Virus record (IMG/VR): IMGVR_UViG_2565956600_000007
Length of the DNA: 12,520 bases
Source of the DNA: a virus
Lineage: Duplodnaviria > Heunggongvirae > Uroviricota > Caudoviricetes
Reading direction: 5' to 3' (one strand)
Numbering within the stretch: the stretch's first letter is position 1; every line of letters begins with the position of its first letter. A model generated the notes under the pieces. That model was not told where the DNA came from, did not search any database, and saw only the letters and a program-made list of their open reading frames with translations. Shown piece after piece: positions 10 to 12,520 of this stretch. The position numbers and the translations under genes are program-made.

Positions 10-567
10 TCATGCGTTAGTTTCTCCACAACCAGAAGCAATCGACGCCACGACGCCCGGAGCTGCACACTCGCGGGCGTCATTACTTTCTGAAACGCAA
101 AAAATTTTGTAGACAAGTGCTGCATGCTCCTGCAGCTTCGAAATTGAGAGATACAGCTCGTCGTTAATTGCTGTCTTCTCATGCGGTTCCACTACACCGT
201 CTTCGATTGCCGAACGAATCTGTTTTGAATAACTGCCGATCTGTTCAATGACTTCCAGTAAACGCTGGTTAATATCGGCATTGTCCACATCCTCGACGTC
301 AGGAAGAGACACAAAGACGCCATTTGCAGACTGCGCCACAGCGTCAGCAATGAAGTGAGTTCCACCAGCACGTTGCAAAATCATTGCCCATCCCAGCGGG
401 AAAATCTGATCGCCATCGGCACGAAGGCGGTTAAATAATGCGTTCTCTGTTACATCCAGCCACTCAGCAGCTTCAGCGTAACCCCCCGGCAACGCCGCGA
501 TAGTTTTTCTGACAGCTTTCACGTACCACTCAGGCTGTTTTTCCACTTTCCAGTGATGATTACCCAC
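10..567 (-). CDS. Phage CII-like (possibly CP76-family) regulatory protein, 185 aa
   Basis: Complete ORF on the minus strand whose ATG (565-567) overlaps the 3' end of the upstream cro-like gene by 8 nt. Sits in the cro-cII position of a lambdoid immunity region. The family assignment is from memory of the N-terminal region and is not verified. Confidence 0.55.
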   Translation of the reverse strand: MGNHHWKVEKQPEWYVKAVRKTIAALPGGYAEAAEWLDVTENALFNRLRADGDQIFPLGWAMILQRAGGTHFIADAVAQSANGVFVSLPDVEDVDNADINQRLLEVIEQIGSYSKQIRSAIEDGVVEPHEKTAINDELYLSISKLQEHAALVYKIFCVSESNDARECAAPGVVASIASGCGETNA

Positions 568-820
568 GGCTTACCTCCTGTTCCTGTGGTTTAAACCCAT
601 TCTGGTTTTGGCTAGATTGAAAACGTGCCGGATAAAGAATCTGCATTTCGCTGATTTCACCCTTAAAAAAATTGGCCAGACGTTCTGCAAGATCGATAGA
701 TGGAATTTGTTCCAGTCTTTCAATACGACTCAGCGTCGCTGGATTGACCTGAACGCCAGCAGCAACATGCTGCAAAGTAAATCCGTGCGCCTTACGCACA
801 TTCCGTAATGGTGATTGCAT
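560..820 (-). CDS. cro: Cro-like HTH (XRE-family) transcriptional regulator, 86 aa
   Basis: Helix-turn-helix-like segment FTLQHVAAGVQVNPATLSRIERLEQIPSIDLAERLANFF. Transcribed divergently from the cI-like gene across an operator-bearing intergenic region. GGAGGT Shine-Dalgarno (revcomp of 824-829) sits 3 nt upstream of the ATG. Confidence 0.8.
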   Translation of the reverse strand: MQSPLRNVRKAHGFTLQHVAAGVQVNPATLSRIERLEQIPSIDLAERLANFFKGEISEMQILYPARFQSSQNQNGFKPQEQEVSRG

Positions 821-917: not shown

Positions 918-1610
918 ATGAACATAGGAAACCGAGTCAGACAACTTCGCCAGGCGAAGAACATGAAAATCGCCGATCTCGCTGAAGCAATAGGAGTGGA
1001 TGCGGCGAATATCTCACGCCTGGAAACAGGTAAGCAGAAACAATTCACTGAACAAGCCCTGAGTAATATTGCCAGGAGCTTAGGTGTTGATATTGCTGAT
1101 CTCTTTACCTCAGACTTCAAAAGTAATACTGTATGTAAAAACAGTATTAGTGAGGATGTTGCGCAGGTGAAGGATGTATTCCGTATTGAAATGCTGGATG
1201 TCAGTGCCAGTGCGGGAAATGGCCTTATCCAGGGCGGTGATGTCATTGATGTGATTCATGCCATTGAATACAGAACTGATAATGCTGTATCGATGTTTGG
1301 CGGACGGCCAGCCAATCACATTAAAGTTATCAACGTTCGTGGGGACAGTATGTGTCCAACCATTGAGCCAGGAGATCTCATCTTCGTTGATGTCAGTATC
1401 AATCAGTTTGATGGAGATGGTATCTATGTATTTGGTTTTGATGATAAAATTTATGTCAAACGACTGCAAATGATACCTGACAAACTACTGGTGATTTCTG
1501 ATAACCAGATTTACCGTGAATGGGGAATTACCAGCGAAAATGAACACCGGTTTATGGTCTTTGGAAAGGTCTTAATCAGCCAGTCACAAACCCTTAAGCG
1601 ACACAATTAA
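918..1610 (+). CDS. cI: CI-type prophage repressor, N-terminal HTH plus C-terminal S24 (LexA-like) autopeptidase, 230 aa
   Basis: N-terminal HTH (NRVRQLRQAKNMKIADLAEAIGVDAANISRLETGK). Ala-Gly linker (SASAGNG). C-terminal GDSM serine motif and VKRL lysine motif as in LexA/lambda CI. No Shine-Dalgarno upstream, consistent with a leaderless mRNA. Confidence 0.9.
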   Translation: MNIGNRVRQLRQAKNMKIADLAEAIGVDAANISRLETGKQKQFTEQALSNIARSLGVDIADLFTSDFKSNTVCKNSISEDVAQVKDVFRIEMLDVSASAGNGLIQGGDVIDVIHAIEYRTDNAVSMFGGRPANHIKVINVRGDSMCPTIEPGDLIFVDVSINQFDGDGIYVFGFDDKIYVKRLQMIPDKLLVISDNQIYREWGITSENEHRFMVFGKVLISQSQTLKRHN

Positions 1611-1630: not shown

Positions 1631-1651
1631 AGCCACCCAAAGGTGGCTTTT
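1631..1651 (+). terminator. Possible intrinsic terminator after cI
   Basis: Stem AGCCACC (1631-1637) / GGTGGCT (1642-1648), loop CAAA, followed by TTT. The U-tract is short, so this is weak. Confidence 0.4.
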
Positions 1652-1665
1652 CATCACCCTTTAAA

Positions 1666-1704
1666 TTGCATATCTCGCAACAAAAACACTTGCATAATGC
1701 GCAA
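1666..1704. promoter_or_regulatory. OL-like operator pair (candidate pL region)
   Basis: Two perfect TTGC-N7-GCAA dyads, TTGCATATCTCGCAA (1666-1680) and TTGCATAATGCGCAA (1690-1704), 24 bp centre to centre, matching the dyad in the cro/cI intergenic region. CATAAT (-10-like) at 1693-1698. Confidence 0.5.
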
Positions 1705-2129
1705 CTTCATTTTATCTTTCTTTCCAGACAAACAAACAAGGTACTAACAAAATTTGGTTGTAACACGGCGTATGGCACATGCGTCGTTAGCGGTCTGGGG
1801 ACGTTAAAGGGGACAATCCACTCCTTGCTCGGGCAAACAAACCAGGTAGCCGGAATGTGCAAGTCAATGATGATGCTGATAAGACGCCTAACCAGCGTGG
1901 CGATTCGGTTTGACGCCTGGGAAGAGACCAGGGTGCAACGATGAGGGCATTTATGGAGCCGCGACAAAGTGTGGTGCCGTAACTGGCTAAGTGCTCTCAG
2001 CGTTGTGGTAATCCGCGAAATGGCGCGGCGGTAAGTATGGCGGGGTTACTCTTTCCCCGTTGAGGACACCGGATTGTCAGGTTGACCATACGCCTGAGTG
2101 ACAACCCCACCACAACAGCCACTGCTTTG

Positions 2130-2175
2130 GCGGTACCAGTTTGTACCCTTGCTTCCGGCTGGTACCGCTCTTTTT
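2130..2175 (+). terminator. Strong hairpin plus T5 tract in the early-left leader (tL-like terminator or boxA-like element)
   Basis: Perfect 10-bp stem GCGGTACCAG (2130-2139) / CTGGTACCGC (2159-2168), 19-nt loop, then TCTTTTT (2169-2175). The 3' flank CGCTCTTTTTACAA resembles boxA-like antitermination sequences. Confidence 0.45.
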
Positions 2176-2312
2176 ACAAAACAGAGAAGAGCATCACCGG
2201 ACGACGGGCTCATAACCCAATCCATCCGGGCGGCTGCCACCGCAGGTGTTCTTCTCCGTTTTGTGGAGAAACCAACCGACCTTGCAGGGTCGATATGATG
2301 AGGAGCAGCAAA

Positions 2313-2675
2313 ATGGCTAGCGAACGCAGTACTGATGTGCAGGCATTTATTGGGGAGCTGGACGGCGGCGTATTTGAAACCAAAATCGGCGCAGTTCTCA
2401 GTGAAGTCGCTTCCGGTGTGATGAACACGAAAACCAAAGGTAAGGTCTCGCTCAACCTGGAAATCGAACCGTTTGATGAGAATCGTGTGAAAATCAAACA
2501 CAAACTCTCGTATGTTCGCCCGACTAACCGCGGGAAAATTTCCGAAGAAGACACCACCGAAACGCCGATGTATGTCAATCGCGGTGGTCGCCTGACTATT
2601 CTGCAGGAAGACCAGGGACAATTACTGACTCTTGCTGGTGAACCTGACGGAAAACTCCGCGCAGCAGGTCATTAA
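2313..2675 (+). CDS. Phage early protein, YfdP-like, 120 aa
   Basis: AGGAG Shine-Dalgarno at 2301-2305, 7 nt before the ATG at 2313. The longer six-frame ORF from 2082 has no ribosome-binding site and runs through the terminator-like hairpin. Size and position match the first gene of the YfdP-YfdQ-YfdR block (from memory). Confidence 0.6.
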   Translation: MASERSTDVQAFIGELDGGVFETKIGAVLSEVASGVMNTKTKGKVSLNLEIEPFDENRVKIKHKLSYVRPTNRGKISEEDTTETPMYVNRGGRLTILQEDQGQLLTLAGEPDGKLRAAGH

Positions 2676-4217: not shown

Positions 4218-4325
4218 AAATCAGCACGTACGAATTCAAACTCTGCCATAAAAGAACATATAAGTAATTTATTAACATATAGATATAGGTTATATTACAA
4301 ATTGAAAAATTATTGGAGAGCAACA

Positions 4326-5192
4326 ATGAATCAAAATCCATTCTCATTCTATGACTTTCTTGGATATTTAATACCAGGTGGTTTTTTTATCCTATTAATG
4401 TATTTCTGTGGTTTGACATTCGATCTAGATATTGTTATTGACTTAAGTGAATTGCTCAGAGGTCAAAGTCAAATCTTTGGCATTTTGAACTACGCTTCAA
4501 TAGTTATTATATCTTATATAGCTGGACATTTTATTTCTATCACGTCAGCATTTTTTATCGAAAAATACATGAATAAAGAATTAGGATATCCTTCCAAATA
4601 TCTATTTAAAAAATTGATAGATACCTCAGAAAGCATTTGTAGCCCATCATGCGATGAGAGAAGCGCTGATAAAAAAACAAAAATAAAGAATCGCATAATC
4701 AAATGCGTATTATGTCCAATAATACTATGGGATTTTATAACACAAAAACTATGTTATTCTCAATCTCTACCATTTCATTTAGCTAATACAACATGGTTAA
4801 TGATCAAAGAAGGTTATGAGAAAAAGTTCATAACAAATCGCCAATTATTACAAGATAAAAACGGACTTGATGATGATCTCTTCAGATTGGCATATCATTA
4901 TGTTTATGAGTTTTCAAAACAACATCAAACAAAAATTCAAAACTATGTTGCATTATATGGTTTTTGCAGAAACATATGTTTAATCTTTATAATTTCATTT
5001 TGGGTATCAGTTCCAACCTTTATTTATCGATTATGTACTCATAGTGATTATCTTTATAGTTTACTTTCAATAATGCTTAGCTTTTTCTTCGTCTATGTTT
5101 TCTATGTTGGTTTTGTTAAATTTTATAGAAGATATACTTTAGAAGTATTAATGGCATTTGCTGTACTTCAAAGTAACGACACTATTCGTTAA
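4326..5192 (+). CDS. AT-rich integral membrane protein of unknown function (about 4 TM helices), candidate moron, 288 aa
   Basis: GGAGAG Shine-Dalgarno at 4315-4320 before the ATG at 4326. Hydrophobic segments: FLGYLIPGGFFILLMYFCGLTF, IFGILNYASIVIISYIAGHFISITSAFFI, YVALYGFCRNICLIFIISFWVSV, LYSLLSIMLSFFFVYVFYVGFV. Composition is much more AT-rich than the flanking phage genes, with Lys/Asn/Ile/Tyr-rich codon usage. Confidence 0.7.
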   Translation: MNQNPFSFYDFLGYLIPGGFFILLMYFCGLTFDLDIVIDLSELLRGQSQIFGILNYASIVIISYIAGHFISITSAFFIEKYMNKELGYPSKYLFKKLIDTSESICSPSCDERSADKKTKIKNRIIKCVLCPIILWDFITQKLCYSQSLPFHLANTTWLMIKEGYEKKFITNRQLLQDKNGLDDDLFRLAYHYVYEFSKQHQTKIQNYVALYGFCRNICLIFIISFWVSVPTFIYRLCTHSDYLYSLLSIMLSFFFVYVFYVGFVKFYRRYTLEVLMAFAVLQSNDTIR

Positions 5193-5233
5193 TAATGTTG
5201 CTCCCGTGTGCAGACGGGATAATGGAGAAACGT

Positions 5234-5440
5234 ATGCTGAACCTCGATTGTGTTCCTATCTCAACTTATTGCAAAGAAACTGGCGAAACTCCTGAAGCAA
5301 TAAACAAACGTGTACAGCGCGGTGTTTGGCGTGAAGGTGTTCAGGTTTTAAAGGTTGAAGGCGTTAAGGAGAGGTGGATTGATCTTAGTGAGGTTGCAAA
5401 ATGGGCCAGACAAAACTGCTCAAACTACCGCGCGGCGTAA
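5234..5440 (+). CDS. xis: Excisionase (Xis-like), about 68 aa
   Basis: Small basic protein immediately upstream of int, overlapping it by 40 nt as in lambda xis/int. GGAG at 5224-5227 precedes the ATG at 5234. Alternative in-frame starts at 5222 and 5195. Confidence 0.6.
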   Translation: MLNLDCVPISTYCKETGETPEAINKRVQRGVWREGVQVLKVEGVKERWIDLSEVAKWARQNCSNYRAA

Positions 5441-6573
5441 CAATCAGGAAACACCGCCAGGGAGAAACGATCAATATAACTTTCACCTACAAAGGAGTTA
5501 GATGTCGTGAGCCGCTTTCCAATCTGGAAGTAACATCAAAGAACATTAAATACGCCGAGCGTACACTCGGCGAAATCCATAATAAGATCGAAAGGGGAAC
5601 ATTCATTTATGCAGAATATTTTCCCCGTTCTGCTCGTTTGAAAATTTTTGGTAATGCTGCTGCAGGCAAAACGGTAAAGATGTACCTGGACGAATATCTT
5701 GAAATCTGCGAAACAAGAAAACTTTCACCCTCTACGATTGGTGGCTATAAAAAATGCCGTAGTGCGTTAGCCTCACTTCACATTTGCCCTGCAAGTGAAT
5801 TAACACCAGCAACCCTGAAAGCGTGGATTCAAAGCCAGAAAACAACCTTAAAAACCATTCGCAACCAGTTATCTTTCCTACGGTCAGCACTTGATGAAGC
5901 CGTGACCGATGGGGTACTTCAAATTAACCCCGTATCGTTAGTAACAGCTTCGCGCTACCAAAGTGATAAGTCAGAAGCAGAAAGCAGCTATGTGGTTGAT
6001 CCGCTATCACCAGCAGAAGTTGATGCATTACTAGCAGCAGCCGGAAACAAACAATGGGAAAATCTGTTCCGGTTCGCCATACATACAGGCCTGCGTAGTT
6101 CTGAATTATGTGCCCTACGATGGCATGATATCGACTTTGTTGGAAAAACAGCCCATGTTCAGAGCGCAAGTGTTGTCGGAGTTATCAAAGGAACAAAGAC
6201 AAAAGCCGGTACCCGTAAAGTTGAACTGACTGAAGAAGCAATGTTGGCGTTGATAAACCAGAAGCCATTTACATTCATGAAGGATGCTACTGTCTTTGAA
6301 GATCCAAAGACCAATAAACCCTGGGCAAGTGCTGATGCAATTAGGAAAAAAGCATGGGTGCCAACATTGCGAAAAGCAGGTATTCGTTACAGAAACCCAT
6401 ATCAAACCAGGCATACATTCGCCACCAGCCATATCAGCCGGGGAGCAAACCTGTTTTGGCTTGCGGCTCAAATGGGCCATAAAGGGCCTGAAATGTTATT
6501 CAGGCACTATGGACAATACTTGAAAGAGTATGATGGGAGGGCAAGTATCAAGGATAAAAAGGCTTTATTTTAA
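5401..6573 (+). CDS. int: Tyrosine recombinase, lambda-type phage integrase, 390 aa
   Basis: N-terminal arm-binding-like region (LPRGVTIRKHRQGETINITFTYKGVRCREPL). Catalytic signature residues: R in TGLRSSELCALRW, H-x-x-R in TRHTFATSH, and a C-terminal H...Y in GHKGPEMLFRHYGQY. Confidence 0.9.
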   Translation: MGQTKLLKLPRGVTIRKHRQGETINITFTYKGVRCREPLSNLEVTSKNIKYAERTLGEIHNKIERGTFIYAEYFPRSARLKIFGNAAAGKTVKMYLDEYLEICETRKLSPSTIGGYKKCRSALASLHICPASELTPATLKAWIQSQKTTLKTIRNQLSFLRSALDEAVTDGVLQINPVSLVTASRYQSDKSEAESSYVVDPLSPAEVDALLAAAGNKQWENLFRFAIHTGLRSSELCALRWHDIDFVGKTAHVQSASVVGVIKGTKTKAGTRKVELTEEAMLALINQKPFTFMKDATVFEDPKTNKPWASADAIRKKAWVPTLRKAGIRYRNPYQTRHTFATSHISRGANLFWLAAQMGHKGPEMLFRHYGQYLKEYDGRASIKDKKALF

Positions 6574-7182
6574 GTCATTATGCCAATCGTCTACTGTTTG
6601 AAACCAAATTTTTAACCTTTGCATAAAGGTACGATCCTTTTTGGGAGGGTGGTACCTTTGAAAAGAAGTATGTAACGCTTCGATAACTCCCATACAAGCA
6701 TCAATTACTTCTTGTGCTTTAACCGGGCGATCGGCATCTGAAAGCTTGTGAGCGACCTCACAATCCAGAGTTGCTTTCTCTAGTACAGATGAGAACACCT
6801 CGTCAGGTATATACAGTCCTCTGCTTTCCAAAATGCAAATCAGTTTGGAAACTTGTTGAGCTTTAGCCAAGATAGTTAACAAGTATGAAACAGAAGCCTT
6901 TGTTCTATCCTTTTGCAACCTTAACAATCGATGCTTTGATGCTCTAATTTTAGGTTGAGTTGTCTGACTGAGCCAATAGTTAGAAGAAATATCAGAAATT
7001 TCAATAACTAACTTTGAAATAGCATCAATAATTGATTTCGATTCAGAACGTGTCGCCAGTTTTACAGAATTATTGTACGCAACTCGCCATCCAATGAAAA
7101 CTAAGCAGACGCTAACTACTGTGATACACCACGAATACTGTCCTATTTGTGCTACTAATGACATTGGTTCCGTACTGATCAA
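6565..7182 (-). CDS. Membrane-anchored protein of unknown function (N-terminal TM helix plus helical domain), third gene of the cargo operon, 205 aa
   Basis: TTG start at 7182 preceded by AAGAGG at 6 nt spacing; alternative ATG at 7164. N-terminal hydrophobic segment YSWCITVVSVCLVFIGWRVAY. The 3' end overlaps the int stop convergently by 9 bp. Confidence 0.55.
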   Translation of the reverse strand: MISTEPMSLVAQIGQYSWCITVVSVCLVFIGWRVAYNNSVKLATRSESKSIIDAISKLVIEISDISSNYWLSQTTQPKIRASKHRLLRLQKDRTKASVSYLLTILAKAQQVSKLICILESRGLYIPDEVFSSVLEKATLDCEVAHKLSDADRPVKAQEVIDACMGVIEALHTSFQRYHPPKKDRTFMQRLKIWFQTVDDWHNDLK

Positions 7183-7192
7183 CTATCGCCTC

Positions 7193-7519
7193 TTATACTC
7201 TTTCTGGTTGTGCTAAATCAATAAATTTATCAATCTGTTCTTTGTAGAACGGAACATCACTTTTTATAATCAAACGTGCTTTAACGTTGGCTTTAGGTAT
7301 CCCTTCCTTACGGATGAGACCTCCAAACGCCTCTTCTAAGAAAGAGGAACCAACACCCAGTGCTATACCGCGAAAATCAACCACAATCTCCTGTTCAGTA
7401 CCCTTCAGCGCAGGCACCAAAAACTCTCTACGAAATCTTTCCGCACTGTGTGGGCTATCCGTTGTGTAACGTCCGAAAGGTGTTCTGGAGAACTCCTTCG
7501 CTATGACGATATTTCTCAT
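7193..7519 (-). CDS. STAS-like (DUF4325-like, anti-sigma-factor-antagonist-like) protein, 108 aa
   Basis: Small protein with a VVDFRGIALGVGSSFLEEAFGGL segment resembling the SpoIIAA/RsbV region that carries the phosphorylatable Ser. AGGAG Shine-Dalgarno 8 nt upstream of the ATG. Starts 4 nt after the ATPase gene stop. Confidence 0.6.
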   Translation of the reverse strand: MRNIVIAKEFSRTPFGRYTTDSPHSAERFRREFLVPALKGTEQEIVVDFRGIALGVGSSFLEEAFGGLIRKEGIPKANVKARLIIKSDVPFYKEQIDKFIDLAQPERV

Positions 7520-7523
7520 AAAA

Positions 7524-8435
7524 TCATCTCCTGGGAACCAGCGACCATTGTAGTAAAGTACCCGGTATGTACTCAGCTAGCTTCTCACATCGAGGACTAC
7601 TGTCATTAGAATTATAGCTATAACGAGCCCTTCCTGTTAGTATCAGAAGTGTCTCATTATCCTCACAACCTGCCCCAATAGGTCTCTTGATATCTTCAGA
7701 GCCATTTCCCCGTCCGGAACCAACAAAGCGGGATTCCCCTACTAACATAGCTCTTTCCACAGAAGATACTTCGTTTTGAATGCTATGACCATCACCATTA
7801 GGCACGAAACTTCTATAAATCCCCAATCCAAGGTCACAAACGATAAAAACGACTTTATTTTCATCACGATTGAACCAAGCGCACTGCCACCATCGTTTAC
7901 CTTTGAGAAGCTGAATATCTGACTCGAACCCCTCATCTTCATACGCATGATGAGAAACATTGAGCAAAGCTTCACTAATCGCTGTCAGCAGTAAGCCTAA
8001 CTGTTCATTATTAAGCAGAGCACTTTTCTGCAGCATGAGTACTGTTTCAACAATATGCTCGTAAGGTTCGACAGCTGACTGAAAGTATCGTTCCTCCCTC
8101 GTAAGTGCATTCAGTTTCTCTTCTGTGCCAGCAAGCAAAGCACGAGCAAGTCCAGTACCAACGATCCATCTATGCCCAGATGGGTTATCATCCTTTTTAG
8201 GCCATTTAAAACGTATAAAATTAGGGTCCCGGGTTAAAAATTGAGCTCTATTTACTATGGCAAAGAACAGTACCGATGCCGCAGCTGAGGCAAATTTTAC
8301 CTTGGACAAATCAACTATAACTCGACCTTTATTTTTTACTCCAATCGATTCAATCGAGTTGATGAAGTTCAATGTCCCAGCCCTAGAATCATCTGAGTAA
8401 ATGCAAAATTTGCTTGGGGGTACCAGTATGGTCAT
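7524..8435 (-). CDS. GHKL-type ATPase (HATPase_c-like, RsbW/SpoIIAB-like putative Ser kinase) with a roughly 140-aa N-terminal domain of unknown function, 303 aa
   Basis: Bergerat-fold motifs in the correct order and spacing: N-box EALLNVSHHA, G1 box VCDLGLGI, G2 box GSGRGNG. First gene of a tightly packed three-gene minus-strand operon with an AT-rich upstream region (8436-8583). Confidence 0.65.
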   Translation of the reverse strand: MTILVPPSKFCIYSDDSRAGTLNFINSIESIGVKNKGRVIVDLSKVKFASAAASVLFFAIVNRAQFLTRDPNFIRFKWPKKDDNPSGHRWIVGTGLARALLAGTEEKLNALTREERYFQSAVEPYEHIVETVLMLQKSALLNNEQLGLLLTAISEALLNVSHHAYEDEGFESDIQLLKGKRWWQCAWFNRDENKVVFIVCDLGLGIYRSFVPNGDGHSIQNEVSSVERAMLVGESRFVGSGRGNGSEDIKRPIGAGCEDNETLLILTGRARYSYNSNDSSPRCEKLAEYIPGTLLQWSLVPRR

Positions 8436-8583
8436 AGCGATGTCATTCTTATACGATGGATTTATAGATTATCTACTATTCATAGTTGGTTATGAAGACT
8501 GGGATATAACAGTAAAAGATACGTGTAAGATCCGCAAGATAGTTAATGTCGAAAAAAATCATTAATTACATCAAGTTAGTGAT

Positions 8584-8619
8584 ATTTGGACTCGGGTTCA
8601 ACTCCCGCCAGCTCCACCA
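8584..8619 (+). other. ssrA: tmRNA (ssrA) 3'-terminal segment (T-arm, acceptor 3' strand, CCA): att core or displaced ssrA end
   Basis: ATTTGGACTCGGGTTCAACTCCCGCCAGCTCCACCA closely matches the 3' end of enterobacterial tmRNA as I recall it (GGACGCGGGTTCAACTCCCGCCAGCTCCACCA). Sequence upstream of 8584 is unrelated to tmRNA, so this is only a fragment. Confidence 0.7.
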
Positions 8620-8666
8620 AAATTCTCCATCGGTGATTACCAGAGTCATCCGATGAAGTCCTAAGA

Positions 8667-8698
8667 GCCCGCACGGCGCAAGCCCTGCGGGCTTTTTT
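8667..8698 (+). terminator. Intrinsic terminator downstream of the ssrA 3' segment
   Basis: Stem GCCCGCA (8667-8673) / TGCGGGC (8686-8692), 12-nt loop, then TTTTTT (8693-8698). Confidence 0.7.
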
Positions 8699-8752
8699 GT
8701 GCCCTCAATTTGTCCCGCGAAGTCCGAAGAAAACTAATTAAATCCGATCCTT

Positions 8753-8806
8753 TTAGGCACCTTGTTAGGCACCTCATAAAGCTTTATTGTTTTTTGAGGT
8801 GCCTAA
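8753..8806. promoter_or_regulatory. Three copies of a 9-bp motif TTAGGCACC upstream of the P4-type integrase (candidate arm-type or regulatory sites)
   Basis: Direct copies at 8753-8761 and 8765-8773, and an inverted copy GGTGCCTAA at 8798-8806, 19 bp upstream of the int ATG. Confidence 0.4.
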
Positions 8807-8824
8807 AACTATGGAAACCCGGCA

Positions 8825-10066
8825 ATGGCAAGACAAACCAAACCTCTATCCGTTAAAGAAATAGAATCAGCCAAACCCAAGGAGGCGGACTACGTTCTCT
8901 ATGATGGCGATGGCCTTGAGCTACTCATTAAATCCAGCGGGAGTAAAATCTGGCAGTTTCGCTACATTCGCCCTGTCACCAAGAAACGAGCAAAGAAGAG
9001 CATAGGCTCCTACCCGTCAGTTACCCTTGCCGATGCCAGAAACTACCGTGCAGAGTCCCGCTCACTACTGGCTAAACAGATCGATCCGCAGGAACATCAG
9101 CAAGAACAATTGCGCAGTTCGCTGGAAGCCAAAACCAACACTTTCCAACTCGTAGCTGAACGTTGGTGGAATGTGAAGAAAGCCAGTGTGACAGAGGACT
9201 ATGCGGAAGATATCTGGCGCTCTCTTGAAAGAGACGTCTTTCCTGCGATTGGCGACGTTAGCGTTACAGATATTAAAGCTCATACACTGGTTCAGGCCGT
9301 ACAACCGGTTCAGGCCAGAGGAGCACTGGAAACTGTTCGTCGCCTGTGCCAACGTATTAATGAGGTCATGATCTATGCCCAGAACACAGGGCTGATTGAT
9401 GCTGTTCCCAGCGTTAATATCGGTAAAGCCTTCGAGAAGCCTCAGAAAAAGAACATGCCCAGCATTCGACCGGATCAGCTACCTCAGTTAATGCAGACGA
9501 TGCGAACAGCCAGCATTAGCCTTTCCACACGCTGCCTGTTCATGTGGCAACTTCTTACTATTACCCGCCCTGCCGAAGCGGCTGAAGCTCTCTGGGAAGA
9601 GGTAGACATAGAAGCGCGAGAGTGGAAGATTCCTGCAGCACGCATGAAAATGAACCGCGACCATACTGTTCCATTGTCAGATGAAGCAATTGCGATACTA
9701 GAGATGATGAAGCCGTTAAGTGGAAATCGAGAATTTATCTTTCCCAGCCGCATCAAGCCAAACCAGCCGATGAACAGTCAGACCGTAAACGCATCGCTAA
9801 AACGCGCAGGTTTTGGTGGGGTGCTCGTTTCACACGGCCTGCGATCTATCGCCAGTACAGCCCTTAATGAGCAGGGATTTCCACCTGATGTTATTGAGGC
9901 TGCACTTGCTCATGTGGATAAGAATGAGGTTCGTCGTGCGTATAACCGTAGTGATTATCTTGAGCAGCGACGGCCTATGATGCAGTGGTGGGCTGATTTT
10001 GTGATGGCTGCAGATCACGGTAGTATGATTGAAGGAGGGATAAAGGCAATGCGGTTAGTTGGATGA
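8825..10066 (+). CDS. intA: P4/CP4-57-type tyrosine integrase, 413 aa
   Basis: N-terminal arm-binding-like region (KPKEADYVLYDGDGLELLIKSSGSKIWQFRY). Catalytic R in TITRPAEA, H-x-x-R in HGLRSIAST, C-terminal Y in RRAYNRSDY. Lies about 200 bp downstream of the ssrA 3' segment in the same orientation, as for intA next to ssrA in E. coli K-12 (from memory). Confidence 0.9.
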   Translation: MARQTKPLSVKEIESAKPKEADYVLYDGDGLELLIKSSGSKIWQFRYIRPVTKKRAKKSIGSYPSVTLADARNYRAESRSLLAKQIDPQEHQQEQLRSSLEAKTNTFQLVAERWWNVKKASVTEDYAEDIWRSLERDVFPAIGDVSVTDIKAHTLVQAVQPVQARGALETVRRLCQRINEVMIYAQNTGLIDAVPSVNIGKAFEKPQKKNMPSIRPDQLPQLMQTMRTASISLSTRCLFMWQLLTITRPAEAAEALWEEVDIEAREWKIPAARMKMNRDHTVPLSDEAIAILEMMKPLSGNREFIFPSRIKPNQPMNSQTVNASLKRAGFGGVLVSHGLRSIASTALNEQGFPPDVIEAALAHVDKNEVRRAYNRSDYLEQRRPMMQWWADFVMAADHGSMIEGGIKAMRLVG

Positions 10067-10146
10067 CATGTCGTAGCTAAAACCCGTTCTGTTTTTGGGT
10101 AGATTAACCTGAAGGTCTGCAATTTTAAATGACGCTGAAAGAAGTT

Positions 10147-10172
10147 AAACCCTGCTCTTAAGCAGGGTTTTT
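10147..10172. terminator. Bidirectional intrinsic terminator between the convergent integrase and cargo operon
   Basis: Stem AAACCCTGCT (10147-10156) / AGCAGGGTTT (10161-10170), loop CTTA, flanked by T and A runs. Confidence 0.6.
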
Positions 10173-10204
10173 ATGATTTATTCTAATTTTGGTTTTGAAT
10201 CTTT

Positions 10205-11299
10205 CTATTTTAAATCAGCCTTTGCGGCTCGAATATCTGCGTTTTTTGCTGAGTATTCCCATTCGTCAGCGATTCTAAATAGCATTGCAGAAGTACGGAC
10301 GCAGTGGGGCATTGAATTTGCCCATTCTCGGTACTGCTCAGCTAATATCCTTTCTTGGTTTCCACCTTCGTAACGCATACGAGCAAATACCCCCCTTTTA
10401 TTGTACCTACCAATTTGTATACCTTGCTCTAACTCATCAGAAGATAATATTTCAATGATGTGCCGAATTGCTTCATGTGGCCAGGAATTATCTACTGAGC
10501 TATTAGGGGCATGTGCCAGAATTTTTCCTATTACATGATCAGTGATTTCTTGGCGATGATGCAATTTTGCTAAATGGCGTACATTCTCACACCAATCTTC
10601 AAGTTTATCTTGATCAATTTCATTGTCTATCTGCCCTGGTAGTATTCGTAATTTTTCAAGTAATCTGTATATAGAAGTAGCTCTTTTAACTTCCAACTCC
10701 GATGGTTCTGTTTGTTCATCTTCGTCACTACGATATACAATACATATTGCTTCTATAAAAACCTCTGGCTTTTTCATCATTAGACGATGCAGGATAAGTG
10801 GCTCATCGCTATCCGGAAAACAAGGCAAGTAGGTCATTTCTTTAAATGCCAAATCTGTTTCAGAAACATCGTTACGTTGTTTGAGTTCATCAAAAACTTT
10901 TTTTACATAGTACGATAGCATTGTATCAAATTGGATATCCTGGCTATTTATTTCTTTAACGACTATATCTAGAAGATATAAAAGTGTTGTAGATGGAATC
11001 TCAGAAAGGCGTTGATTTGCTGATATAATAGCAGCAAGACCCCGGCCCCTTTCTATATATTTATCCATAAGAACAAATAAATCCGAAGTTTTACCCATCA
11101 TTGCAATGGGTTGTTTTTGCAACCAATATTTTTCGTTGATGTTATCTTCAAACCCTTCAATAATGCTCCATATCTCTTGTGAGTCTCTTAACGATGCTAA
11201 GATTTTCCCAGCCCTATCAGGGGTAATTTTAAACTGTTTAAAATACACTTTTATTTTATTAAGCCATTCAGCACCAAAGCATTCAACACCATATTGCAT
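10205..11299 (-). CDS. Hypothetical protein (AT-rich, predicted largely helical), distal gene of a translationally coupled pair, about 364 aa
   Basis: ATG at 11297-11299 overlaps the upstream stop as TAATG. The six-frame TTG start at 11305 is less likely. No Walker A, nuclease or other motif recognisable by eye. Confidence 0.65.
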   Translation of the reverse strand: MQYGVECFGAEWLNKIKVYFKQFKITPDRAGKILASLRDSQEIWSIIEGFEDNINEKYWLQKQPIAMMGKTSDLFVLMDKYIERGRGLAAIISANQRLSEIPSTTLLYLLDIVVKEINSQDIQFDTMLSYYVKKVFDELKQRNDVSETDLAFKEMTYLPCFPDSDEPLILHRLMMKKPEVFIEAICIVYRSDEDEQTEPSELEVKRATSIYRLLEKLRILPGQIDNEIDQDKLEDWCENVRHLAKLHHRQEITDHVIGKILAHAPNSSVDNSWPHEAIRHIIEILSSDELEQGIQIGRYNKRGVFARMRYEGGNQERILAEQYREWANSMPHCVRTSAMLFRIADEWEYSAKNADIRAAKADLK

Positions 11300-12520
11300 T
11301 AACAACCCACAAACTTCATCAATATTTTTTTGTTGTTAATAAGCATTACAAACAAATCATTTAATTTTTCTTCATCCAACGAGAGTGCTGATATATGCCT
11401 TGCTGCAATAAAAACATTATTAACTTGTTGAAAAAGGTCTTTCACCCCAGACAAACCTAAAGTAAAGTATATTTCCCTAAGTTTTTCACTTCGCATTTCT
11501 TCGACAGAAGAAAAAATTCCGCCAGCATTTTCAATTGACTCTTCAATATCAGAATCCCAATCATTGAAAATCCATAAACTGGCTCTAACCATGTCAATTG
11601 GTTTATAATTATCAAGTATTTTCGCTATTTTTTCCATAGACTCAAATTTAAATGCCCAGTTCGCATCTGAATATTTTTTATGGCGAGAATACTCATGACG
11701 CAAAGCCTCCCATACGATGAACTGATCCTCTTCAGTTTGTTGAGAAAGGCAAAGTTCAAGATGAGAAAGTGTTTCATCTATTGCATTCTCAGGGAATGAG
11801 CTTAAATGAGAGATTAGGATTTCCCATCTTGTTGGGAGTATACCTGCAAGTTTAATTGCTTCTTGGATAATAAAGATTTGCCCCTCCCAAACAACGCCCC
11901 ACGTTAGTTTTTCTACATCTTTATCCGACTCTCTGAACTTCATTTTTTGGTTTTGATCAGAGGTATCATGGGAGCGAGGAAGGAGATTTTGTAACAAACT
12001 CCACCCAATACTAGGAACAATAGTGATAATTTTTTTTATAATTGCATTTCTAACTTTTACTGGTGCCCATGTATTAGGAGACCATGCCAGAAAAATGGTT
12101 CTTAAACTATTAAGAGGGCGATCTGAGTAAGTTCCTCCGGGATCTATTACAGCGAGTTTTGCAAGACAGATTGCAGCGCGTAATAGATATGTTTGTTCCC
12201 AAGCCAAGGCTTCCAATGCCCATTTTAATCCATGATAATGACTTCGAGGAGTTAACAGCCCTTTATCTTCATTGAATATTGGAGCAATCATTTCCCCATT
12301 GCCCTTAAGCAATTGCTCAAGGGCATCAAGGAAAGGGCCAGGGGCAGCTTCTGCCAGCAGCGGAAGTTGATCTCGCAAACTAACAAATAGTCGATGGTCG
12401 TTAGCAAGTCCCGGAATACTCTGAACTATTTTGTTAACAAAATCTTGGGGTGTCATACCAGTAACCCGGAATTCGGCCTGTTCATGTAATATGATCTTAC
12501 CCAGCAATAGTGGACACGCG
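11299..12520 (-). CDS. Hypothetical protein, 5'-partial (the reading frame is open to the window edge; more than 402 aa)
   Basis: The frame is open through 12508-12519 on the minus strand, so the true start is outside the window. AT-rich, with no recognisable catalytic motif. Confidence 0.65.
   Translation of the reverse strand, partial: ACPLLLGKIILHEQAEFRVTGMTPQDFVNKIVQSIPGLANDHRLFVSLRDQLPLLAEAAPGPFLDALEQLLKGNGEMIAPIFNEDKGLLTPRSHYHGLKWALEALAWEQTYLLRAAICLAKLAVIDPGGTYSDRPLNSLRTIFLAWSPNTWAPVKVRNAIIKKIITIVPSIGWSLLQNLLPRSHDTSDQNQKMKFRESDKDVEKLTWGVVWEGQIFIIQEAIKLAGILPTRWEILISHLSSFPENAIDETLSHLELCLSQQTEEDQFIVWEALRHEYSRHKKYSDANWAFKFESMEKIAKILDNYKPIDMVRASLWIFNDWDSDIEESIENAGGIFSSVEEMRSEKLREIYFTLGLSGVKDLFQQVNNVFIAARHISALSLDEEKLNDLFVMLINNKKILMKFVGC

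Follow-up and report, generated by a model that had tools for sequence, protein, structure and literature searches.

What occupies the roughly 600 bp that separate the left operator (OL) and left promoter (PL) of a lambdoid prophage from its first early-left gene? We addressed this question for positions 1705-2312 of a 12,520-nucleotide (nt) stretch of viral DNA (IMG/VR record IMGVR_UViG_2565956600_000007), referred to here as the window, which is the immunity and early-left end of a lambdoid Escherichia coli prophage. A first-pass annotation had described this leader as non-coding and G+C-rich, with a terminator-like hairpin and a boxA-like string, and had offered two interpretations: antitermination in cis, as with the put elements of phage HK022, or a non-coding RNA. 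Our results support the second. The leader is not passive but a chain of conserved RNA modules, designated A, B, T and C, on the + strand, and segment 1751-2264 almost certainly encodes structured RNAs of previously unannotated families. Whether A, B and T (~1751-2175, ~430 nt) constitute one discrete RNA gene, of a previously unannotated family in phages of Enterobacterales, is an evenly balanced question. That such a gene is terminated and acts in trans, rather than as a cis-acting leader, could as easily prove false as true, and it is the reading developed here.

Protein coding was considered first. G+C content is 0.53-0.57 over 1800-2400 versus 0.38-0.45 in the flanks, and the six-frame open reading frames (ORFs) at 1666-1944 (+), 1707-1967 (-), 2046-2621 (-) and 2098-2298 (+) had no Pfam matches. 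No frame was kept open among 44 diverged relatives, 25 of which lacked any open frame on the + strand; the lengths of these relatives were evenly distributed across the three residues modulo 3, and no 3-nt (codon) periodicity was found in their variable columns. The lack of Pfam matches and of a conserved frame led us to reject protein coding in the leader, in agreement with its earlier description, and a conserved protein gene, sought with Pfam and in the 44 relatives, was not found. The leader (1705-2312) also contains no supported ORF that could be an N-like gene, as had been noted, and neither the window nor mEp460, cdtI or a Stx2c phage yielded an N-like gene. The first ORF beyond the leader (phrog_204) has no Pfam match and is not N-like. 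The 613-nt + strand folds more stably than shuffled sequences (z = -4.3, 20 shuffles).

The comparison of relatives that had been recommended for RNA structure revealed compensatory changes in A, in its long hairpin P6, and in T and C (Table 1). For the core of module A we used an alignment (A2) of 44 sequences, each below 93% identity, and tested helices P2, P3, P5 and P5b and the pseudoknot. In this alignment 98.7% of pair cells are paired and 11 of the 27 pairs have changed on both sides. Doubly changed cells number 104, compared with 28.4 ± 6.5 in shuffled controls (0/500) and at most 15 when pairing partners were slid; kinship among sequences can inflate shuffle controls, and the slid-partner controls address this. 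A covariance model of A (R1) scored 144.6 bits at the window copy. A swap from U-A to C-G in P3 separates two sequence classes, GGUCUG...CAGGU and GGUCCG...CGGGU. G-U pairs are frequent in the helices on the + strand only, which identifies this as the RNA strand. The boundaries of the module are sharp, with conservation starting abruptly at ~1751, and members were compared down to ~50-65% identity.

Several unpaired joining segments of A are also invariant (UGGCACAUG, AGCGGUC, GGUAGCCGGAAUGUGCAAG and GGAAGAG), the invariance of GUAGCCGGAAUGUG being partly built in by the search patterns. The sequence GCACAU in the P2 loop (1775-1780) is fully complementary to AUGUGC in an invariant joining segment (1856-1861), and a second pseudoknot may form between them; neither side varies, which leaves no room for a covariation signal. 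An outer P1 helix (~1755-1763 with 2002-2010) was considered and rejected, as it showed only one-sided changes and its 3′ strand fits the P6 base and helix P7 better. P6 itself has 18 predicted pairs, 9 of which show compensatory changes in 21 diverse sequences (z = -4.0). In some relatives (L097, L161 = SPN1S and L260) its variable tip holds T-arm-like hairpins, GGUUCAAUUCC and GUUCGAUUC, which are captured tRNA gene fragments.

Downstream of A, helix P7 closes a hypervariable domain, B. The P7 strands, GUUGUGG(U) and (A)CCACAAC, are kept around B domains with unrelated interiors, and the segment from GUUGUGG to the tail measures 80-209 nt across relatives. Both strands are invariant, which places P7 outside covariation testing. 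The GUUGUG motif pairs either with 1934-1939 at the P6 base or within P7, and the two pairings are mutually exclusive. The position of B is filled in epsilon15-like phages by a genuine tRNA-Arg(UCU), whose acceptor stem begins at GUGG. The possibility that B is itself a degenerate tRNA was rejected: ARAGORN made no call in 57 variants, even at lowered thresholds, and there was no Rfam match. We regard B as a hypervariable insert in which T-arm-like hairpins sometimes occur. Most relatives have a further hairpin 3′ of B (P8, AUCACG...CGUGAU), which is missing from the window.

The terminator-like hairpin predicted earlier, with its perfect 10-bp stem and T5 tract, is present, and wobble pairs extend its stem to 13 bp. 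This element, T, has a predicted energy of -21.2 kcal/mol (z = -2.8), with 2 of 200 shuffles folding equally well; a simple terminator scan passed over it because its loop exceeds 8 nt. Of 205 loci, 139 have a homologous GGCGGU...ACCGCC-C-U5-ACA, and covariation is seen at 4 of the 11 stem pairs. T is thus a stable G+C-rich hairpin with a U-tract directly 3′ and is conserved in relatives. It also closes the unit after the tRNA in the epsilon15-like locus L002, where no long operon follows, and we regard T as part of the RNA unit itself. The palindrome GGTACC, or its shortened form GTACC, appears at three places within or near T (2133-2137, 2143-2147 and 2161-2166), which would allow alternative hairpins or intermolecular pairing; these repeats are not conserved among other T variants.

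The boxA-like string fared less well. It is present, and consists of the 3′ shoulder of T, the U-tract and the first bases of module C. Among 45 variants of the homologous tail, however, just 10 contain GCTCTTT and the majority have GCCCTTTTTACA, and we rejected a conserved boxA element of the GCUCUUUA type. Although GCUCUUUUUACAA in the window resembles the rrn boxA GCUCUUUAACAA, it is a terminator tail, most homologous tails being GCCCUUUUUACA, and the window, in contrast to lambda nut, lacks both a boxB-plus-N system and an N-like ORF.

Module C, an 89-nt three-way junction, always lies directly 3′ of the T U-tract in lambdoid leaders and was found in more than 120 IMG/VR loci. Its predicted fold is stable (z = -3.7), and across 20 sequences the paired cells amount to 90.7%, with 11 of 31 pairs changed on both sides. 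The 32 doubly changed cells compare with 10.8 ± 2.4 after shuffling (0/500) and at most 9 with slid partners. At the apex of hairpin 1, CGGGCTCATAACCC matches the anticodon stem-loop of the E. coli initiator tRNA-fMet (K-12 metZ) at all 14 nt (three G-C pairs plus the CUCAUAA loop; alignment A6). The GGG/CCC pairs hold in 20/20 sequences, one pair being G-U in 3 of these. The search pattern included CGGGCTCATAACCC, which makes the invariance of this segment in the recovered loci a matter of construction.

The resemblance of C to tRNA is limited to the anticodon arm. Neither ARAGORN nor the Rfam model RF00005 found a tRNA cloverleaf in the window, and ARAGORN found no tmRNA there either. In Klebsiella phages such as GZ7 (L291, 1205-1280) a homologue of C lies directly after tRNA-Asn and tRNA-Arg genes, downstream of Q, and has an acceptor-like stem (GGCCUG/CAGGCC), an ACCA end and a CAU anticodon-like loop. 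Judged by its sequence this homologue may be an armless tRNA-like RNA; ARAGORN and Rfam made no tRNA call for it. C in the window lacks the acceptor-like stem and ACCA end. Regulatory RNAs that mimic tRNAs exist, for example the thrS operator; C resembles these, and the tRNAs with which phages counter anticodon nucleases, in displaying a tRNA-fMet anticodon stem-loop, and differs in copying that arm only. Enteric VapC toxins cleave tRNA-fMet within the anticodon stem-loop (PMC7180214). Because the VapC cut site is the stem-loop copied in C, the analogy suggests that C could be a decoy for VapC-type nucleases.

Table 1. Features of the leader and its surroundings, in coordinates of the window.
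Feature	Position	Strand	Basis or remark
cII-like gene	10-567	-	
cro-like gene	560-820	-	cro/cII overlap
cI-like S24/HTH (helix-turn-helix) repressor	918-1610	+	
Repressor gene terminator	1631-1652	+	Sequence: AGCCACC-CAAA-GGTGGCT + T4
OL, two 15-bp operator repeats	1666-1680, 1690-1704	+	Sequence: TTGCAT-N5-CGCAA; overlap PL
PL, promoter-like	1690-1718	+	Sequence: TTGCAT (1690)-17 nt-TATCTT (1713-1718)
Module A, conserved RNA	1751-2007	+	At least 6 helices and a pseudoknot
Module A core	1751-1939	+	Alignment of 44 sequences, covariance model
P2	1766-1774:1778-1786	+	
P3	1793-1797:1843-1847	+	Encloses P4
P4	~1807-1812:1821-1826	+	Energy-minimum fold and inspection only
P5	1884-1887:1895-1898	+	
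Pseudoknot	1890-1893:1907-1910	+	P5 loop with 3′ segment
P5b	1916-1920:1928-1932	+	
P6, long hairpin	1934-1939:2002-2007, 1940:2001, 1943-1953:1988-1998	+	Variable tip
P7	2002-2116	+	GUUGUGGU (2002-2009) with ACCACAAC (2109-2116); closes domain B
Domain B	2010-2108	+	Hypervariable
T, intrinsic-terminator-like	2129-2175	+	Hairpin 2129-2141:2157-2169, then C-UUUUU 2170-2175
boxA-like string	2166-2179	+	CGCTCTTTTTACAA
Module C, three-way junction	2176-2264	+	Covariation
C closing helix	2176-2182:2258-2264, 2184-2195:2245-2256	+	
C hairpin 1	2197-2201:2225-2229, 2203-2204:2221-2222, 2206-2208:2216-2218	+	
tRNA-fMet anticodon stem-loop copy	2205-2218	+	CGGGCTCATAACCC, apex of C hairpin 1
C hairpin 2	2230-2243	+	Variable
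Small hairpin	2277-2282:2287-2292	+	CGACCU/AGGGUCG side
Shine-Dalgarno AGGAG	2301-2305	+	Serves ATG 2313
First supported early-left ORF, yfdP-like	2313-2675	+	ATG 2313; phrog_204 (E = 1e-49)
Small ORF in excisionase position	5195-5440		No Pfam match
Integrase int	5401-6573		

How widely is this RNA distributed? In BLAST searches the 702-nt stretch 1611-2312 was 99.9% identical to sequences of O55:H7 strain CB9615 and enterotoxigenic E. coli (ETEC) strains, and against phage records it resolved into a mosaic of separately distributed pieces. At least part of the stretch is carried by 4,768 genomes. Module A itself is present, without annotation, in 1,638 of 5,426 complete E. coli genomes (~30%), with 258 places on plasmids. 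It also occurs in P1, P7, D6, SJ46 and RCS47, upstream of ban; in phiV10, TL-2011b and other Uetakeviruses; and in phages of Salmonella, Klebsiella and Enterobacter. A scan of GTDB species gave ~7 true matches, all in Enterobacteriaceae, along with ~30 chance matches; the pattern covered the CAGG/GGTCTG class only, and the range of taxa recovered is a minimum estimate. Two exact 17-nt patterns from the most conserved segment of A each recovered at least ~120 IMG/VR loci. The loci analyzed here were taken from among the listed matches to exact patterns of 17-19 nt and are a biased sample, in which the pattern segments are invariant by construction. Coding sequences (CDSs) annotated as hypothetical proteins overlie the RNA modules at L289 4462-5015, L380 33705-34160 and UTI89_C5094, mostly on the opposite strand (mEp460 gp36 and gp37, cdtI orf40); these calls are probably spurious.

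The genomic settings of A fall into three unrelated kinds, over which the architecture of the unit is conserved. In lambdoid phages, A lies behind three repressor families (88 loci) and has no accompanying tRNA. Its core starts 39-47 nt downstream of the -10 hexamer with the two commonest repressor types and ~115 nt downstream with the third, and the PL hexamers of the window recur upstream of the core behind two repressor types. In P1-like phages, A begins 1-2 nt past the CCA end of tRNA-Ile2(CAU) in the C1-controlled ban operon; in P1 (L287, NC_005856 68500-73000) it occupies locus positions 2521-2705, within an unannotated 286-nt gap between trnI and ban, and scores 139.6 bits. The P1 ban operon also has a dicF-like region, tRNA-Asn and tRNA-Thr, and the record is otherwise densely annotated. 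In phiV10-like phages the 3′ GUUGUGG of A overlaps the first four bases of tRNA-Arg(UCU). The epsilon15-like order is TTGAC(A/C)-17-TACCTT promoter-like hexamers, A, tRNA-Arg, P8, T and a second terminator; in the phiV10-like L002 it is TTGACA-17-TACCTT, A, tRNA-Arg, a hairpin, T, a second terminator and a small gene, which by its sequence looks like a self-contained stable-RNA transcription unit. Flanking tRNAs are all on the same strand as A and were abutting or embedded in 64 of 204 sampled loci. No conserved protein neighbour or partner was found among clusters of flanking ORFs examined with Pfam, PHROGs and PADLOC.

The searches linked these RNAs to no known family. Rfam 15 was applied at gathering thresholds to the whole window and five related loci, and in E-value mode to 1550-2450, 2170-2275 and L291; the matches were confined to tRNAs in relatives and noise, with no GOLLD or ROOL match at gathering thresholds or at E ≤ 10 in 1550-2450. 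Exact-sequence and keyword searches of open-access text found no description, and a preprint on the Pas small RNA (sRNA) concerns late-region sRNAs and is unrelated. By analogy, the closest known kind would be GOLLD and ROOL, phage and prophage RNAs near tRNA islands, with tRNAs sometimes inside the GOLLD linker (PMC12286853). The RNA described here is likewise phage- or prophage-borne and near tRNAs, with tRNA-Arg replacing B in some phages and tRNA-Ile2 abutting A in P1, and it shares several helices, pseudoknots and the lack of a partner protein. It differs in matching neither Rfam model, in the smaller size of the A-B-T unit (~430-500 nt), in its occurrence in Enterobacterales, whereas GOLLD and ROOL are mainly from Firmicutes, Actinobacteria or environmental sources, and in being, in lambdoid phages, the first product of PL under repressor control. 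Unlike its tRNA-bearing relatives, the window copy has no tRNA, as judged by ARAGORN. Species 1 and 2 RNAs of T4 are stable RNAs encoded in its tRNA cluster and offer another parallel, as phage RNAs co-transcribed with tRNAs whose ends presumably come from tRNA processing enzymes; they are smaller and from another phage group, and homology is not expected.

We propose that when the repressor leaves OL, transcription from PL, starting near 1725 as inferred from the promoter-like sequence, would make the A-B-T RNA first. A large share of transcripts would end at T, giving an abundant and presumably stable RNA of ~450 nt that would act in trans. The remaining transcripts would read through T, with C as a 5′ untranslated region, and express the early-left genes as far as xis and int. 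P7 would serve to carry the hypervariable B or, in other phages, a real tRNA, and C would be a separate conserved three-way junction displaying the initiator-tRNA anticodon arm. Because of the analogy with GOLLD and ROOL and the links to tRNAs, the trans function would most likely concern tRNA or translation during lytic growth, one possibility being a scaffold or a decoy against host nucleases that target tRNAs. A further argument comes from SfV (L290, 700-1800), in which the A core has been lost to an insertion and orf33 and other sequence stand in its place. This phage is viable and keeps AGCGTTGTGG-B-T-C, including the 3′ end of P6, before the yfdP-like gene and the same downstream genes; A is therefore not needed in cis to pass T.

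Several observations weigh against a terminated, trans-acting RNA. PL must still reach xis and int, and a strong terminator at T is awkward unless there is read-through or antitermination. The T loop is large (15 nt) and the U-tract is interrupted. The exclusive pairings of GUUGUG with the P6 base and within P7 could be a switch. T is missing from P1-like members, as is P6 from some of them; A there sits inside an mRNA and may have a cis role in those phages. The likeness to GOLLD and ROOL, moreover, is one of context and not of homology.

A bolder extension, which we consider doubtful, is that A-B-T belongs to a new class of large pseudoknotted phage RNA, a ribozyme or a tRNA-embedding, RNA-only assembly like GOLLD and ROOL, made as the first product after induction and present in ~30% of E. 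coli genomes and in P1. C would then be an initiator-tRNA anticodon-arm decoy, for example absorbing VapC-type nucleases that cut tRNA-fMet, or a mimic at the ribosomal P site, and the PL leader would be an RNA-based cassette for host takeover or anti-defence rather than a regulatory leader.

The alternative that survives best is the cis antitermination raised in the first-pass annotation, in which nascent A (or C) would bind RNA polymerase and make it resist T and later terminators, allowing an N-less phage to express its early-left genes to xis and int. The setting is right for such an element: A is the first element transcribed from PL in a lambdoid phage that, like mEp460, the Stx2c phage and cdtI, has no N-like gene, and PL is separated from the genes by a terminator-like hairpin, with int further downstream, so that transcription from PL must cross T. 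L002 has two terminators before its next gene and, by scan, no promoter-like site there. The long invariant unpaired segments could be a surface for binding a protein or the polymerase. For LLS, a related N-less phage, Casjens and colleagues speculate on a put-like mechanism (PMC12315714).

Direct comparison with HK022 argues otherwise. A blastn comparison of 1611-2312 with the complete HK022 genome returned nothing beyond chance matches, none longer than 26 nt, and covariance model R1 gave noise (7.4 bits, E = 0.44, inside a tail gene). HK022 put is ~70 nt with two stems (PMC9378689), compared with ~260 nt and at least six helices for A. Put elements come in two copies, at PL and PR; A has a single BLAST place per phage record, the complete 47-kb genome of cdtI has one copy (144.6 bits), on the PL side only, and in the window the cro/cII overlap leaves no room for a copy on the PR side. 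From the blastn and covariance searches and the single copy in cdtI we rejected homology to put. A put-like function fits poorly as well. A is found beside tRNAs in P1-like and epsilon15-like phages, and in P1 it lies ~2.3 kb from the promoter, after a tRNA. Relatives that lack A keep the same operon: SfV, without the A core, retains T, ST64B shows nothing matching A, and the early-left genes are the same in both. The conservation of T within the unit would be odd if the unit abolished termination. On this evidence we consider put-like antitermination unlikely and continue to prefer a terminated RNA gene.

It is improbable that the leader is evolutionary debris, a remnant of a tRNA island recombined into the PL leader and without a function of its own in lambdoid phages. 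The mosaic leader, the T-arm hairpins in P6 tips and B, the partial deletion in SfV and the lambdoid copies of A, mostly more than 95% identical among themselves, would all be compatible with this. Debris, however, would not be expected to show compensatory changes that keep at least six helices at ~50-65% identity in three unrelated genomic settings, or sharp conservation boundaries, or retention behind three immunity types and in ~30% of complete E. coli genomes. Finally, a riboswitch or attenuator, in which A would be an aptamer for a ligand or factor and the competing pairings of GUUGUG (1934-1939 or 2109-2116) would relay its state to T and set entry from PL into the early-left genes, has in its favour a complex, pseudoknotted and highly conserved core, a terminator downstream and mutually exclusive helices that share GUUGUG, but is very improbable, because the spacer between A and T is 80-210 nt without a conserved interior, or a whole tRNA plus hairpin, and so gives alternative pairing no conserved route to T, the 5′ strand of T enters no alternative pairing except a weak 4-bp hairpin, P1-like members lack T and no consistent class of gene lies downstream.

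Few genetic systems have been studied as closely as E. coli, its lambdoid prophages and P1, and a covarying RNA of ~430 nt has nevertheless gone unannotated there, in Stx2c, cdtI and uropathogenic E. coli (UPEC) prophages and in the 286-nt gap upstream of P1 ban. At minimum, the annotation of this region should change. If functional, the RNA would provide a genetically tractable enterobacterial counterpart of the GOLLD/ROOL class and would bear on the early-left operon of N-less lambdoid phages of the LLS, SfV and ST64B type, and the anticodon-arm copy in C would suggest a testable RNA decoy or mimic mechanism.

The surroundings of the leader conform to a lambdoid layout. The site homologous to the repressor gene terminator is annotated as rho-independent in SfV and SfII. 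The yfdP-like ORF is followed in order by DUF2303/YfdQ, an HD phosphatase, a low-G+C ORF, a small ORF and the integrase. The ORF at 4302-5192 (+), between the early-left genes and xis/int, encodes 296 amino acids at 27-31% G+C, has no Pfam match, weakly resembles the membrane protein Csx27 in PADLOC (E = 1.4e-5), and looks like a moron or accessory gene. Past the prophage integrase, 7193-8435 (-) holds a DUF4325 (STAS-like) ORF and a histidine-kinase-like ATPase ORF, 8825-10066 (+) a second tyrosine integrase, and 10205-12507 (-) two large ORFs without Pfam or PADLOC matches; this arrangement suggests that 6565-12507 is a second element integrated in tandem.

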